This document shows positions 5,210 through 10,644 of a DNA stretch of 28,278 nucleotides, piece by piece. The translations under genes were made by a program, and so were the position numbers. The notes below the pieces were generated by a model. That model saw only the letters and a program-made list of their open reading frames with translations. It did no database searches and was not told the DNA's origin. The stretch lies in assembly GCA_037917625.1 (NCBI GenBank), contig JAVCBY010000074.1:1-28278 (forward strand), read 5' to 3'. How positions within the stretch are numbered: position 1 is the stretch's first letter; every line of letters begins with the position of its first letter. The DNA comes from Thermoproteota archaeon. Its GTDB lineage: Archaea; Korarchaeota; Korarchaeia; Korarchaeales; Korarchaeaceae.

Positions 5210-5273
5210 CGGAATATTGCTACGCAGCTACTTTATAATCTCACCAATCGTCTCCGAGCCGAAGGGGTCGTCA

Positions 5274-6560
5274 ATGGTATCCATACCGAGGGGCTTCAGG
5301 GACTTCCCTCCGCCGATGATGATACTCAGGAAGAGGATCTTGAGCAAAATAGAGGAGATATTCAGAAGGTATGGCTTCGATCCAATGGAGACACCCTCCC
5401 TAGAGTACTGGGAGACAGTTAAAGGGAAGCTTGGGGAGGAAGCTGAGAACAAGCTCATGTTCATCTTCCCCGATTTCTTCAGTAAGGAGTGGTACACACT
5501 GAGGTATGAGCTAACCTTCCCTTTAGCTAGATATGTTGCTATGCACCCTGAGACGCCTCTCCCGTTCAAGAGGTATCATATCGGGAACGTCTGGAGGCAT
5601 GAGGAACCTCAAAAGGGTAGATATAGGGAATTCCTACAATGCGATGCTGATATAGTCGGTAGCCCATACCCGGAAGCGGATGCTGAGGTTATATCAGTTA
5701 ATATAGATGCCATGAAGTCATTCAACTTTGAGAACTTCAGAGTCAGGCTCAACGATAGGAGGCTCTTAACTGGAGTTTTTGAGGAGGAGCTCGGGATAAA
5801 CAATCCTTTCCCGATATATAGAGCCATAGATAAGCTCGATAAGATAGGAGTAGATGGAGTGAGGGGAGAGCTCACTAGATTAGGGGCTCATGAATCCCTA
5901 ATAGATAGAATCATGGAACTTATCTCGATGAGGGGTAGCTTCGGTGAGGTATCTCAGACATTCAGGAGGATAGAGAATGATAAAGTAAAGGCAGCTCTCG
6001 ATCATCTAGAGGAGATATTCTCCATAGTTTCGGATGATAGGCTCATCTTCGATCTCTCATTAGTGAGGGGCCTCGATTATTATACGGGCCCCGTCTTTGA
6101 GACTAGCGTCAGCGAACCTAGGATAGGCTCATTAGCCGGAGGAGGGAGATACGATAGGCTGATAGGTCTCTACTCTGGAAAGGATGTTCCAGCGACTGGC
6201 GTGAGCTTGGGCGTGGAGAGGTTAATAGACGCCGGTCTGGAGTTAGGTATCTTCGATTTGAGTGAGAGGAGCTACACGGATGTATTCATTGTGAGCATTA
6301 GGAGGGAGAACTGGAGGTATGCTTGGCGTATCTCTAGGATCCTCAGGGAGGGGGGCTTCAGTACATCGCTGGATTTGATGAGGAGGAGTCAGACAGCTCA
6401 GAGGGAGTACGCTAATAAGATAGGGGCTAAGGTCATCGCATTCGTGGGGCCATCCGAGGAGGAAACTGAGACAGTCACGCTATACTCCAAGGATCTCAGG
6501 AAAACTGTCAAAATCTCAGAACTGATAGATTCCGTGAGGGAGTTTCTCTTCGGATCTTGA
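5274..6560 (+). CDS. hisS: Histidyl-tRNA synthetase
   Basis: PRGFRDF, LRYELT, motif 2 WRHEEPQKGRYREFLQCDADI, LVRGLDYYTG, GGGRYD, GVSLGVERL and an anticodon-binding C-terminal domain. Start moved from 5217 to ATG5274 (MVSIPRG). Confidence 0.98.
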   Translation: MVSIPRGFRDFPPPMMILRKRILSKIEEIFRRYGFDPMETPSLEYWETVKGKLGEEAENKLMFIFPDFFSKEWYTLRYELTFPLARYVAMHPETPLPFKRYHIGNVWRHEEPQKGRYREFLQCDADIVGSPYPEADAEVISVNIDAMKSFNFENFRVRLNDRRLLTGVFEEELGINNPFPIYRAIDKLDKIGVDGVRGELTRLGAHESLIDRIMELISMRGSFGEVSQTFRRIENDKVKAALDHLEEIFSIVSDDRLIFDLSLVRGLDYYTGPVFETSVSEPRIGSLAGGGRYDRLIGLYSGKDVPATGVSLGVERLIDAGLELGIFDLSERSYTDVFIVSIRRENWRYAWRISRILREGGFSTSLDLMRRSQTAQREYANKIGAKVIAFVGPSEEETETVTLYSKDLRKTVKISELIDSVREFLFGS

Positions 6561-7188
6561 TCCTGTAATCTACATCTATCTTCACGAAACCCTCCAACTC
6601 GTCCAGGGAGTTCAGGAAATTTGGGAAATTCCTTAAACTCACGATAGCTACACCCTCTTTAGATCTAACAACTCCCGTATCGAGCCAAGAGACTATAAAT
6701 GGGATTATTTGAGATTTTCCGCTCTCCTTAATTAAGCCATTTATTGATCCAGATCTCATAGCCTCATCGAAAGCTTTAGCTTTCCTCAGGTGGTCCCTAG
6801 CTGCGGGTTCTATTTTCCCAGATCTCCCCCTCATGGACCACATCTTACAATCTATCAGTAGGATAAGCTTCTCGCCTATACCGAGGACGTCTATCTCATA
6901 TCTTCTATCATCCTTGAATCTTAATCCTCTAATAGCCTCCATTCCATGTATTTGAAGGCCTCTCATGCAGAAAGCCTCGAAGTCCTTCCAGCTCAATAGA
7001 GAAATAGCTCTCTCCGGGGAAACTCCTATCTTTAAGAGACAAAAGGCAACTCCTATTGGATCTCTCTCGGGCTCTGTTCCTAACTCATCCTCTAAATATT
7101 CTAAGAGTTTCGGGTCAACACTTTTCCAATCTCCTAAGATCATCAAGTGGAGCTGCCTCTCAGCGAGCTCCTTGAGTATTGAGAGCAT
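6508..7188 (-). CDS. PD-(D/E)xK nuclease, Mrr/NERD/restriction-endonuclease-like
   Basis: LSWKDFEAFC...G ... EIDVLG ... LLIDCKMW matches the Mrr-type E...D...(D/E/Q)xK catalytic pattern. Confidence 0.78.
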   Translation of the reverse strand: MLSILKELAERQLHLMILGDWKSVDPKLLEYLEDELGTEPERDPIGVAFCLLKIGVSPERAISLLSWKDFEAFCMRGLQIHGMEAIRGLRFKDDRRYEIDVLGIGEKLILLIDCKMWSMRGRSGKIEPAARDHLRKAKAFDEAMRSGSINGLIKESGKSQIIPFIVSWLDTGVVRSKEGVAIVSLRNFPNFLNSLDELEGFVKIDVDYRIKIRRETPSRNLSVLRF

Positions 7189-7287
7189 TAAGATGAGTAG
7201 CTAAGAGCTCATTTAAAAGCTCTTGCGATCGGTAATCTCTCATCGAGGAGATTCAAGCTTAGGAAGCCACTGCAGATACCATTGCTA

Positions 7288-7301
7288 GGAAAGTTTTTAA
7301 A
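7288..7301 (+). promoter_or_regulatory. BRE/TATA promoter for the trpB2 leader transcript
   Basis: Purine-rich GGAAAG directly followed by TTTTTAAA (7294-7301). The expected start is about 7323-7328, just before the SD at 7329. Confidence 0.65.
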
Positions 7302-7340
7302 GATGAAATTGGATTTCCCCTCACTACTGGAGGTGCGAGC

Positions 7341-7364
7341 ATGGGGGATTTAGTTTGGCTCTGA
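7341..7364 (+). CDS. Putative Trp-containing leader peptide MGDLVWL (uORF of trpB2)
   Basis: ATG GGG GAT TTA GTT TGG CTC TGA, preceded by a perfect SD GGAGGTG (7329-7335) at 5-nt spacing, the same spacing as argF, arcC, livH and korB in this window. Confidence 0.65.
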   Translation: MGDLVWL

Positions 7365-7442
7365 GTTCTATTTCGCTCCCATGATCCTAGCCCATATCGT
7401 ATCCGATTCCATGAGCTCTTCTAATCTCGGAGGTGATCCTAA

Positions 7443-8726
7443 GTGCTGAGAGTCGATCTTAGGAAAGAGGACTTACCGAAGTATTGGTACAATATAGTCT
7501 CTGACCTCCCTGACCTACCCCCTCCCATACACCCGGCTACGAAGGAGCCTCTCGGGCCCAAGGACTTCTACCCGCTTTTCCCTAAAGAGTGTGTAGATCA
7601 GGAGTTCTCCAAGGAGAGATATATAGCTATACCTGAGGAGCTAAGGGAATTCTACCTCAGAATAGGGAGACCTACTCCTCTCTACAGAGCTAAGAGGCTC
7701 GAAGAATATTTGGGGACTCCCGCTAAGATATACTATAAGAGGGAGGATGTATCACCGACGGGAAGCCACAAGCTGAACACAGCGTTAGCTCAGGCCTTCT
7801 ATGCTGCAAAGGAGGGACTGGAATACCTGACGACTGAGACTGGAGCTGGGCAGTGGGGCAGCGCCTTATCGTATGCTACGATGATGATGGGGATAAGAGC
7901 TCTCGTCTTCATGGTCAGGATATCCTATCTTCAGAAGCCTTACAGGAAGCTCGTCATGAAGCTCTACGGCGCTGAGGTAGTGCCCTCCCCGAGCGATAGG
8001 ACCGAGGTCGGGAGGAAGTACCTGGAGAGAGATCCTGAGCACCCTGGATCATTGGGAATAGCGATAAGTGAGGCTATAGAGGCAGCTATGAAGGATGATA
8101 AGGCTAAATATTCCCTAGGAAGTGTCCTTAATCATGTACTCCTCCATCAGACGATAATAGGATTGGAAGCCAAGAAACAGTTCGAGGTCATAGGGGAGAA
8201 GCCCGATGTCTTGATAGGGTGTGTCGGTGGAGGAAGTAACTTCGCGGGCTTCACTTTCCCATTCTTAGAGGAAGCCCTGAGGGGGAAGGAGAGTTATGAT
8301 GTAGTGGCTGTAGAACCATCAGCAGTCCCCTCACTGACTGATGGAGAATATAGGTATGATTTCGGTGATGCAGCTGGTATAACGCCCCTATTGATGATGT
8401 ACACGTTGGGTCATGATTTCGTACCGCCTCCTATTCACGCCGGCGGTTTGAGGTATCACGGCGCTGCGCCTACGGTGAGCTTACTGAAGAACAGGGGCTT
8501 AATAAGATCAGTTAAATACACGCAGGAGGATGTATTCGAAGCGGGCAGGATCTTCGCGAGGACGGAGGGAATAATTCCAGCGCCTGAGACGAATCACGCG
8601 ATAAAAGCAGCAATAGATGGGGCTTTGAAGGCTAAAAAAGATGGTGAGAAGAGAATAATTGCCTTTAACTTCTCCGGGCACGGATTGTTGGATTTAAAGG
8701 GTTATGAGGACGTTTTAAAAATTTAA
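7443..8726 (+). CDS. trpB2: Tryptophan synthase beta chain 2 (TrpB2, PLP-dependent)
   Basis: P..WYNI..DLP N-terminus, SPTGSHKLN (PLP lysine), [35 protein letters not shown] and [11 protein letters not shown] start with SD GGAGGTGA. Confidence 0.96.
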
Positions 8727-8727
8727 A

Positions 8728-9663
8728 TTATTTTTCTCGGATTATTCTAGTTCCTGTTTTTCCATCAAGGGCATCTGTAGCTTTATCCAGGCTCGTTATT
8801 ATAGCGGTCTTGCCCGTCCGCTCAACGAACCTGATCGCCGCTAGCATTTTAGGTCCCATGTTGCCCGGTGGGAAGTGCCCTTCCTCATAGTACTTCTTCG
8901 CTTCCTCCAATGTGAGGGTATCTAGGAACTTCTGATTCTCCTTCTTGAAGTTTATAGCTACTTTCTCGACATCCGTCAATATCATGAACACCTCGGCCCC
9001 TAAGGAGGAAGCAAGTCTCTCTCCGGCCAGATCCTTATCTATGACAGCATCTACCCCCTCTAGCTCCTTCTCATCTACTACAGGTATTCCCCCTCCTCCT
9101 GAAGCTATCACTATTATCCCTGAATCCACCATCCTCCTTATTGCCTCTATTTCAACTTGTTTTATCGGATCTGGTGAGGGAACTACTCTCCTCCATCCCT
9201 TTCCTACATCGTACTTCATTACCCAGCCTAATTTATCCTTCTCCTTGGCCTCCTCCTCACTGTACCACGGACCTATGAACTTCGTGGGATTCTTGAAGGC
9301 CCGATCATTCCTATCGACGAGGACTTGAGTGATGACAGTTACTACTGGCATATCAATTCCCGCTTTCCTAAGCTCATTTATCAGAGATTGCTGGATCATA
9401 TAGCCTATCAGCCCTTGGCTCATAGCACCACAAGCGTACAGAGGCATCGCGGGAACCTGAGAGGATCCTGCTTCTTGTTGAAGCAGTATAGCACCGACTT
9501 GAGGGCCATTACCATGAGTTATAACGACTTTGTACCCCCTCTTTATGAGCTCAACTATCTGCTTGGCAGTTAGCCTAGCGTTAGCTAGTTGCTCCTCGAA
9601 GGTCCCCTTCTGCCCGTATTGGAGGAGAGCATTGCCTCCCAAGGCTATAGTGAGTAGGCTCAT
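8728..9663 (-). CDS. arcC: Carbamate kinase
   Basis: [47 protein letters not shown] and G.MGPK. Confidence 0.97.
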
Positions 9664-9705: not shown

Positions 9706-10644
9706 TTAGATCAAAGCAGCTAATATAGCTGCTTCAGTCCAGAGCCTGTTCTCGGCCTGATCGAAGACAACTGACCACTTGCCCTCTATCACATCCTCAG
9801 TCATCTCATTTCCCCTGTATGCTGGGAGGCAGTGCATGAATATAGCATTCTCTTTAGCTAGGCCCATTATCTCAGGTGTAACGGTAAAGGGAGCGAAATC
9901 CTCCTTCCTCTTATCCTTAGTCTCCTCAGGCTTCCCCATGCTCCACCATGTATTCGCATATACTATATCAGCTCCTTTGACAGCCTCCCTAAGATCGTGA
10001 ACTATCTCGAGCTTAGTTCCTCTACGAGCGGCCTCCCTCTCGCCGAACTTCCATATCTCCTCGATCGGATTGTACCCACGGGGGACTGCTAGTACTAAAT
10101 CCATGCCGAATAGCGGCGCTGTAGCTATTAGAGAGTGAGCGACATTCCATACATCCCCAGTATAGACAATCTTAAGGCCATCCCACCTCCCAAACTTCTC
10201 CTTTATTGTCATGAGATCGGCTAAGGCTTGACATGGGTGCTCCTCATCTGAGAGAGCATTTATCACGGGATTCTTCATGTAGTTAGCGTACTCCACTATC
10301 TCCTCCTGACCGAAGGTCCTTATGACGAGGGCATCATAGTACCTGTCTAGAACTCTAGCGGTATCCTTGATTGGCTCTCCTCTCTGGAGTTGGAGTTCAT
10401 CTGGTCTCATATAGACAGAGAATCCGCCTAATCTAAAGACAGCTGCCTGAAATGAGTTTCTAGTCCTCGTTGATGGTTTCTTGAAGAGGAGAGCTACTGA
10501 TTTGCCCTCGAGGGGTCTGACCCTTATACCGGAGTACCACATCTTCTTCAAATCGATGGACATCTGGATAAGGTATTCGAGCTCCTCCCTCGTGTAATCC
10601 CTCGTGGTTATATAATCTCTACCCTTCAAGTCGAACAGAGCCAT
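9706..10644 (-). CDS. argF: Ornithine carbamoyltransferase-family enzyme (substrate loop atypical)
   Basis: PSTRTR, HPCQALAD, W.SMG, HCLPAYRG.E and FDQAENR. Confidence 0.88.
   Translation of the reverse strand: MALFDLKGRDYITTRDYTREELEYLIQMSIDLKKMWYSGIRVRPLEGKSVALLFKKPSTRTRNSFQAAVFRLGGFSVYMRPDELQLQRGEPIKDTARVLDRYYDALVIRTFGQEEIVEYANYMKNPVINALSDEEHPCQALADLMTIKEKFGRWDGLKIVYTGDVWNVAHSLIATAPLFGMDLVLAVPRGYNPIEEIWKFGEREAARRGTKLEIVHDLREAVKGADIVYANTWWSMGKPEETKDKRKEDFAPFTVTPEIMGLAKENAIFMHCLPAYRGNEMTEDVIEGKWSVVFDQAENRLWTEAAILAALI

Follow-up and report, generated by a model that had tools for sequence, protein, structure and literature searches.

A candidate +1 frameshift site at a tryptophan codon in leaders of the trpB2, trpS and trpE genes of Korarchaea

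Programmed +1 frameshifting in which the ribosome waits on a slow A-site codon is known from bacterial prfB, whose site reads AGGGGG-N3-CUU_UGA_C, with rare UUU variants (PMC12421855, in excerpt). In human cells, a shortage of Trp leads to frameshifting at Trp codons (PMC13751296, in excerpt), and excerpts of a 2016 recoding review state that no case was known of hungry-codon frameshifting making starvation-specific trans-frame proteins (PMC5009743). For Archaea, the excerpted part of a 2021 review gives one demonstrated frameshift, of the -1 type, with +1 shifting only suggested, for viruses, and no cellular +1 case (PMC8211752). Here, we describe a short leader open reading frame (ORF) with a single Trp codon that lies upstream of trpB2 on a 28,278-nucleotide (nt) contig (JAVCBY010000074.1; C26 in our numbering, and hereafter the window) of a korarchaeal assembly of 1.22 Mb in 116 contigs. 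Judged from its arrangement and that of its relatives, this leader probably forms the zero-frame beginning of a programmed +1 ribosomal frameshift by which charged tRNA-Trp is sensed. In the literature surveyed, with supplements outside its scope, neither an archaeal Trp leader nor frameshifting in trpS or trpB2 was described.

The preliminary description of this locus had proposed a tryptophan attenuator composed of a TATA-like box, a Shine-Dalgarno (SD) sequence, the small ORF MGDLVWL* with one TGG codon, and a second SD sequence and GTG start for trpB2. All of these elements were read directly from the DNA where it had placed them (Table 1). Its assignment of trpB2 was also borne out, as the product matched the TrpB-like pyridoxal phosphate (PLP) enzyme profile NF009057 over its full length (700.4 bits; cut-off 366) and scored 682.2 bits against TIGR01415 (cut-off 518.85). 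Since the upstream gene (6508-7188) lies on the opposite strand, the 254-nt gap separating the two genes is a divergent promoter region. The spacer between leader and trpB2 was present as described, but it is probably not untranslated filler: in the 78 nt from the leader stop to the trpB2 start, the +1 frame runs without a stop up to trpB2 and terminates on its start, with the junction GTGCTGA at 7443-7449. Because a TAG closes the +1 frame directly before TTT, this second ORF could not be entered from upstream.

The leader is conserved throughout the genus of the window. Of 36 genomes of the family, 33 have a TrpB2 orthologue (E<=1e-80), and the 18-mer ATGGGGGATYTAGTTTGG, with up to 2 mismatches allowed, was found in all 21 genomes of the genus, with 22 matches compared with 2 for the reversed control. 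Of these 22 matches, 21 precede trpB2, so that each of the 21 genomes has one copy of the leader before trpB2, and the remaining one heads a trp operon. ATGGGGGATYTAGTTTGGC followed by a stop is present upstream of trpB2 in all 20 genus loci that were fetched, and the 21st locus (L033) fits. In all 21 loci, the leader ATG is preceded at 39-45 nt by the end of a T/A box and at 5-6 nt by that of G[AG]GGTG; therefore, the small ORF is placed like a normal gene start. Synonymous variation was observed at Leu codons 4 and 7, and the stop, held at one fixed position, is TGA, TAA or TAG depending on the species. Comparison with relatives, by which the earlier proposal could be checked, showed that the SD sequence, start and Trp codon were kept in every relative examined.

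Conservation of the leader was accompanied by conservation of its +1 frame. In 20 of 20 loci, trpB2 shares the frame of the leader ATG, and the spacers measure 78, 93, 96, 99, 111, 120 or 135 nt, each a multiple of 3 because the +1 frame stays open to the trpB2 start. In every locus, this frame is closed by a TAG spanning GAT-YTA-G, reopens at TTT-GGC and remains open to trpB2. Over the 21 loci, the spacers contained 0 stops in the +1 frame, as opposed to 42 in the +2 frame and 51 in the zero frame. Spacer identity between clades was 39-60%, compared with a shuffled baseline of 48+/-3%, and since it is at the shuffled level, the clades are nearly independent trials; the product of the largest shuffle probability per clade over 7 clades is ~7e-5 for the open +1 frame. 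The +1-frame stop falls on the trpB2 start in 21 of 21 loci, as ATGA in 13 and RTGCTGA in 8. The resulting stub is 31-49 codons long in the genus, its peptide is unconserved between clades, and it lacks a conserved start codon; that of one locus (L007) contains no ATG, GTG or TTG at all. These patterns suggest that what is kept by selection is the passage of ribosomes from the leader to the trpB2 start, and not a protein.

In sister genera, the same +1 frame encodes a protein. The leader motif was detected ~500 nt 5' of trpB2 in 5 of 5 genomes of genus g2 and 2 of 5 of g5, with variants in g3 and g4, and in all 12 of these loci, from four sister genera, the +1 frame following TTT-GGY is an ORF of 135-164 amino acids (aa), here termed gene X, whose stop overlaps or nearly adjoins the trpB2 start. 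The gene X product resembles SerK and SbnI, which are free serine kinases, in their N-terminal domain (NF053625, E 1e-14 to 1e-16), although its score is below the family cut-off (54-61 bits versus 380) and only positions 14-98 of 244 are covered; a Pfam search of gene X returned no match. By this similarity, gene X is a shorter relative of the SerK/SbnI N-terminal domain, with a predicted rather than demonstrated function. The ~20-30 codons separating FG from the gene X domain vary in length and sequence. No candidate in-frame start 5' of the domain with an SD match of at least 5 nt was found in any of the 12 loci, and the positions of candidate starts are unconserved (e.g., TTG at codon 11 in L022 and GTG at codon 18 in L024). 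The same arrangement is seen in records of Ca. Methanodesulfokora (L049 and L055), with the leader spelled ATGGGTGACCTAGTTTGGC. One metagenome-assembled genome (MAG) from outside the set (L052, ~180-330) reads ATGGGGATCGTTTTTGGA, with four G residues in place of five, so that gene X is read from this ATG as MGIVFGRD... What was the zero frame, GDRFWT*, persists in this locus without a start. A search of the stubs of the window genus showed no remaining gene X domain, and the genus stub is best read, from the sequences compared, as a remnant of gene X after in-frame loss of its body.

Gene X loci carry labels in the range L022-L034, together with L138 and L141. At one of them (L032, G028:C40), gene X appears degenerate, with DGHHR changed to NKHHR and 28% identity to the others; its stop lies 14 nt 5' of the trpB2 ATG without overlap, although 135 codons of open frame remain. 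A SerK/SbnI-like gene lies directly 3' of trpB2 in four distant lineages (L045, L059, L091 and L097, from MAGs of Patescibacteria, Norongarragalinales, Aestuariivirga and Nitrososphaeria). TrpB2 enzymes are reported to prefer O-phosphoserine. The adjacency of SerK/SbnI-like genes and trpB2, also in these four lineages, suggests that this neighbour supplies phosphoserine to TrpB2.

The leader is not confined to trpB2. An exact degenerate pattern produced 28 matches in 24 of 43 genomes of the phylum and 0 for the reversed control, and the extra matches in g4 precede the tryptophanyl-tRNA synthetase (TrpRS) gene, trpS. When 28 trpS loci of the phylum were inspected, 20 had the leader (16 from the window genus and 4 from g4); the remaining 8, from g5, g6 and g8-g10, have ordinary starts. 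No stop occurs between TTT and the conserved PWEV block at the trpS loci with leaders. The identity of TrpRS is supported by a 655-bit match to NF008924, in which residue 4 of the +1 ORF is aligned to profile position 7 of 381. In the genome of the window itself, trpS lies on the minus strand of another contig (C64; L156) and is preceded by the leader MQGGSLWQ*, with the site AGGTGG-N4-CTT_TGG_C and TrpRS in the +1 frame. At two loci (L146 and L175), the TrpRS frame is closed by a TGA 4-6 codons before TTT. No ATG, GTG or TTG follows in L146 until codon +31, past the conserved PWEV..DYD.LI.EFG block, and L175 has no canonical in-frame start before its contig ends after 116 codons. With the frame closed on its 5' side and no start available, full-length TrpRS of these two loci could not be made from a canonical in-frame start. 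The g4 genomes G028, G029 and G030 each contain a single TrpRS match (E<=1e-40).

Several further features of trpS were observed. In the genome of the window, the trpS leader ATG lies ~5.7 kb into the reverse-complemented contig, and an in-frame GTG is present 3 codons before TTT. Nine trpS loci from two clades of the genus (L149-L154, L159, L162 and L164) have a leader ATG that lacks an SD sequence and is located ~25 nt 3' of the box CCTTAAATT, as in leaderless mRNAs. These nine loci also provide TrpRS with an SD sequence and ATG of its own, 9-14 codons after TTT and in the same frame, a layout that suggests a basal plus an inducible route. The trpS genes of g5 (L166, L170, L172 and L173) are leaderless, but their start region (e.g., GGGGGGATCTACTTTGAG) resembles the leader core, with the G run in the position of an SD sequence and TTG as the start; this resemblance may hint at an origin of these starts from the leader. 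A second, divergent TrpRS-like paralogue of 364 aa with 35% identity is encoded in the genome of the window (C29, 16009-17100, minus strand); its HIGH-type motif is altered to GPIHIGN, and it has an ordinary SD sequence and ATG without a leader.

A third kind of target was found in one genome, G024, whose second leader, MGDRVWLY*, continues in its +1 frame into anthranilate synthase component I (TIGR01820, 524 bits), followed by trpG-D-C-F-B-A. This operon (L116/L176; G024:C1:377000-387700, minus strand) is a complete trpE-G-D-C-F-B-A set, and G024 is the only one of 40 genomes of the class with a TrpE match (E<=1e-60). Most members of the class thus appear to lack the Trp pathway and to keep only TrpB2, which suggests indole salvage. 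Close variants precede trpS and the trpE operon, as expected for a sensor of Trp-tRNA supply. The small ORF proved to be a real leader that is conserved and specific for tryptophan, and to that extent the preliminary description was upheld.

Taken together, 54 leaders were collected (21 before stubs, 12 before gene X, 20 before trpS and 1 before trpE), and described jointly they share a compact motif, RGGKGR-N4-NUU_UGG-N, which fits 54 of 54. The purine hexamer was GGGGGA in 31, AGGTGA in 9, AGGTGG in 6, GGGTGA in 5, AGGGGA in 2 and GGGTGG in 1. The codon in the putative P site was GUU (31), CUU (22) or UUU (1) and never another Val, Leu or Phe codon, and the A-site codon was UGG in every case, followed by C (44), U (9) or A (1). 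A zero-frame stop occurs 0-5 codons after UGG, and the +1 frame is open for at least 31 codons into a stub, gene X, TrpRS or TrpE in all 54. A single Trp codon is present in 51, the exceptions being MGDLLWWRESC, MQGGSLWQW and MTGDLLWPLRGW; as the preliminary description had cautioned, the leader of the window has just one TGG. In trpB2-type loci, the +1-frame TAG directly precedes TTT in 30 of 33. Transfer RNAs with G34 that read NUU by G:U wobble are present, namely tRNA-Val(GAC), tRNA-Leu(GAG) and tRNA-Phe(GAA). Every locus found through its gene context matched the motif as a regular expression. Specificity was also evident in the genome of the window, where only the trpB2 and trpS leaders among 12 motif matches have the full architecture and where a looser scan for upstream ORFs gave 6 matches, of which the same two were real. 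Of the four others, two (on C2 and C112) lack a gene in the +1 frame, and two have +1 frames of only 3 and 7 codons.

A further property is a TTG, within GTTTGG in the window and at the equivalent place in all leaders, 6 nt 3' of the SD-like hexamer and thus at good spacing for initiation. This TTG would open a +2-frame ORF of 7-18 codons (7355-7384 in the window), an alternative reading of the hexamer.

The korarchaeal element resembles the prfB site, as given in the same excerpt, in its internal SD-like purine run, short spacer, slippery CUU_U and presumably slow A-site codon followed by C; 17 korarchaeal trpS leaders read CUU_UGG_C, one base removed from the CUU_UGA_C of prfB. A UUU variant and in-frame, shiftless homologues (here L052) occur in both. 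In both, too, the rate of shifting would report the supply of the factor that reads the A site, a supply that the trpS product would restore. Unlike prfB, the A-site codon here is the sense codon UGG and not a stop, so that Trp-tRNA, rather than a release factor, would be sensed. The spacing is 4 nt, and only 4-6 codons separate the site from the start, with a zero-frame product of 7-12 residues. The korarchaeal element, moreover, is archaeal and would serve several genes as a regulon. Frameshifting at Ty1 CUU_AGG_C and at E. coli hungry codons is similar in that a P-site NUU slips while the A-site codon awaits a scarce aminoacyl-tRNA; however, Ty1 relies on a constitutively rare tRNA and yields a fixed product ratio, and shifting at E. 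coli hungry codons is described as error (PMC5009743, in excerpt). Eukaryotic antizyme likewise employs a regulatory +1 shift as a metabolite sensor in a feedback loop, but it senses polyamines, shifts at a stop codon and produces an inhibitor rather than a biosynthetic enzyme (PMC8211752, in excerpt).

Two classical leaders are also comparable. Like trpL, the korarchaeal leader is a short ORF before Trp biosynthesis genes that would read Trp-tRNA supply through Trp codons; it differs in that it has a single Trp codon, lacks a terminator and an antiterminator and has a +1 frame that runs unbroken into the gene, and its predicted effect is on translation only. The T-box RNA of Gram-positive leaders binds uncharged tRNA directly and, as here, is a single cis element that precedes both the synthetase and the biosynthesis genes of one amino acid and responds to tRNA charging. 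In Korarchaea, by contrast, the ribosomal A site would be the sensor.

The +1 continuity, the invariant NTT and the trpS genes without an in-frame start led us to infer a +1 frameshift at the Trp codon that depends on Trp-tRNA. Initiation at the SD-served ATG (7341) and reading of M-G-D-L-V would bring GUU into the P site, with the lone UGG in the A site. When Trp-tRNA is plentiful, UGG would be decoded and the stop reached one codon later, giving a 7-residue peptide and nothing for the downstream gene. When Trp-tRNA is scarce, the A site would remain empty, the pause would lengthen, and the peptidyl-tRNA would re-pair from GUU to UUU, a slip that may be aided by the SD-like GGGGGA 4 nt upstream; GGC (GGY) would be decoded next. 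In the genus of the window, the shifted ribosome would cross the stub, terminate on the trpB2 start and both open and re-initiate trpB2 by translational coupling. In sister genera, the +1 frame would yield the SerK-like protein, coupled to trpB2; for trpS it would yield TrpRS itself, forming a prfB-like autoregulatory loop, and in G024 it would yield the TrpE of a full trp operon. We lean, if narrowly, towards a single Trp regulon in Korarchaea in which a prfB-like +1 site with UGG in place of the stop turns on trpS, the trp operon and the SerK-like/TrpB2 indole-salvage pair, gene X having been whittled to a stub in the genus of the window.

Other explanations were weighed against this frameshift. 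The preliminary description had favoured a classical leader peptide, in which a ribosome stalls at UGG without changing frame and thereby alters termination or RNA structure so that trpB2 is turned on. The uORF (upstream ORF) is indeed short, conserved and SD-served, contains a Trp codon and precedes three kinds of Trp genes, and AUGGGGG(AUCU) pairs with a downstream CUCCC-type segment in many single-sequence folds. Nevertheless, we consider this explanation unlikely. There were 0 terminator-like sites in 7000-7700, no T run of at least 5 in the spacer (7365-7442) and no Rfam match in 7200-7450. No fold was common to the 21 leaders, which were folded singly since their spacers are unalignable; energies ranged from -2 to -17 kcal/mol at 75 C, and only GGGGG:CUCCC pairing recurred. 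With one Trp codon and neither a terminator nor a conserved switch structure found, trpL-type attenuation was not sustained, and the predicted effect is not transcription attenuation. Simple stalling at UGG fared no better, since it does not account for a +1 frame that is free of stops in all 21 loci, for spacer lengths divisible by 3, for the NUU before UGG in 54 of 54 or for the two trpS genes without an in-frame start. Stalling would also act in the wrong direction for trpS and trpE because a stalled ribosome would block the overlapping or adjacent start under starvation. The same open frame and start-less trpS genes are unexplained by a TnaC-like arrest peptide, in which G-[DG]-x-[VLF]-W together with free tryptophan would block the ribosome and lower downstream expression. 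Although synonymous changes leave its core intact across families (GGG/GGT, GAT/GAC and TTA/CTA), the peptide is only 7-12 residues long, anywhere from 0 to 5 codons separate W from the stop, and residues after W are unconserved; moreover, the residue before W varies among V, L and F while its codon stays NUU. An arrest peptide is thus very improbable.

It is also improbable, though somewhat less so, that the downstream ORFs simply use starts of their own while the leader competes for ribosomes or feeds re-initiation. An in-frame GTG or ATG does occur in or beside the leader in several loci, nine trpS genes have an SD sequence and ATG, and most stubs contain some ATG or TTG. Against such competing starts stand the +1-frame TAG right before TTT in trpB2-type loci, the lack of any canonical in-frame start in one stub (L007) and two trpS genes (L146 and L175), and the lack of an SD-served start for gene X in 12 of 12 loci. 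Four unrelated ORF types, moreover, share an initial TTT-GGY that is sensible only if read from the leader, and in the in-frame variant L052 gene X starts at the leader ATG. Finally, the leader and stub could be a relic of gene X loss with no present role, trpB2 being translated from its own perfect SD sequence (7429-7438) and start; the unconserved stub peptide and the absence of a gene X domain from the stubs are in keeping with this. A 19-nt leader core that is invariant beside spacers decayed to the shuffled baseline, together with the open frame (~7e-5), multiple-of-3 spacers and stop-on-start overlap kept in 21 of 21 loci, makes a relic hardly credible. The +1 continuity is left unaccounted for by each of the four alternatives.

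Additional candidates were tried and rejected. A C/D-box small RNA (AAGATGA ... CTGA, ~7300-7364) lacks internal D'/C' boxes and has the wrong guide spacing. Read-through of the uORF stop into trpB2, which is in the same frame, would meet three more in-frame stops in the spacer. Transcriptional slippage in the G5 run would, on loss of one G, put the ATG before the +1-frame TAG, and leaders of the GGTGAC type have no homopolymer. No supporting evidence was found for an intron or bypass. An Rfam scan of 6900-7800 (E<=10) gave three weak matches of small nucleolar or long non-coding RNA type, all at 6945-7163 of the minus strand, but none within the leader. A promoter consensus scan returned 0 matches, with a bacterial sigma-70 model that is uninformative for archaea.

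Several observations weigh against the proposed frameshift. In the 31 of 54 leaders with GUU in the P site, tRNA-Val(GAC) that moves onto UUU is mismatched at the first position, whereas CUU and UUU re-pair fully. The hexamer is 4 nt from the slippery codon, versus 3 in prfB, and also encodes Gly-Asp or Gly-Gly; since the synonymous changes GGG/GGT and GAT/GAC keep the peptide, selection on the peptide is inseparable from a role of the RNA. In-frame alternatives to a shift are present as a GTG inside the leader for gene X of g3 and two g4 loci and for clade-A trpS of the genus, an ATG 5 nt upstream of the leader for trpE, and the SD sequence and ATG 9-14 codons downstream in nine trpS loci. 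Owing to these alternative starts, the shift is not strictly required in many loci. The window trpB2 has its own perfect SD sequence and start, and no structure masking this second SD was found when the 21 leaders were folded at 37 and 75 C. The shift site is only 4-6 codons after the start, and we know of no +1 site with so start-proximal a location. Lastly, the tally of 54 leaders is descriptive and not an independent test, as the regular expression used to collect them holds the features counted.

Table 1. Positions of the leader, its signals, trpB2 and neighbouring genes in the window
Feature	Position	Strand	Remarks
B recognition element (BRE)/TATA-like promoter box	7288..7301	+	TTTTTAAA at 7294-7301, read from sequence; putative promoter
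SD sequence GGAGGTG for leader ATG	7329..7335	+	Read from sequence
Leader ORF, zero frame, MGDLVWL*	7341..7364	+	Translated; ATG 7341, TGA 7362-7364, sole TGG 7356-7358
Internal SD-like hexamer GGGGGA, 4 nt 5' of slippery codon	7343..7348	+	Possible stimulator, by analogy with prfB
+1-frame TAG abutting shift site on 5' side	7351..7353	+	Present in 21/21 stub and 9/12 gene X loci
Putative +1 shift heptamer G_UU_UGG_C (P site GUU, A site UGG)	7353..7359	+	Invariant in the genus; shift predicted
+1-frame ORF, 31 codons, FGSEF...GGDPKC*	7354..7449	+	Translated; TGA 7447-7449 overlaps trpB2 GTG 7443-7445
Second SD sequence GGAGGTG, for trpB2	7429..7435	+	Extends to GGAGGTGATC at 7438; also in relatives displayed
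trpB2, TrpB-like PLP enzyme, 427 aa, GTG start	7443..8726	+	Profile matches NF009057, TIGR01415
Histidine-tRNA ligase (hisS)	5217-6560		Listed TTG 5217 probably not the start
Divergent 226-aa ORF	6508-7188	-	Only a sub-threshold NERD match
Carbamate kinase	8728-9663	-	
Ornithine carbamoyltransferase	9706-10644	-	

Among the neighbouring genes, hisS was examined for an analogous leader, and none was found in the window; its ATG at 5274 is in an ordinary context. As this ATG follows the TATA-like CTTTATAAT at 5232-5240, the TTG is the less probable start.

How amino-acid supply is sensed after transcription is poorly understood in Archaea. Behind leaders of this kind, the ORFs of trpS, trpE and gene X will be cut short or given a wrong start by gene callers, and the 17-nt motif would offer a compact, tunable, amino-acid-responsive switch for thermophile engineering. 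If the proposed shift is real, Archaea would have their first cellular case of programmed +1 frameshifting, and hungry-codon frameshifting would for the first time be seen to serve in nature for sensing an amino acid; this would constitute a new mode of archaeal sensing. The prfB principle, in which the A site waits and the ribosome then slips, would have been reached independently with a sense codon. For Korarchaea, it would mean that the synthetase, the biosynthetic operon and the salvage pair are joined in one regulon.

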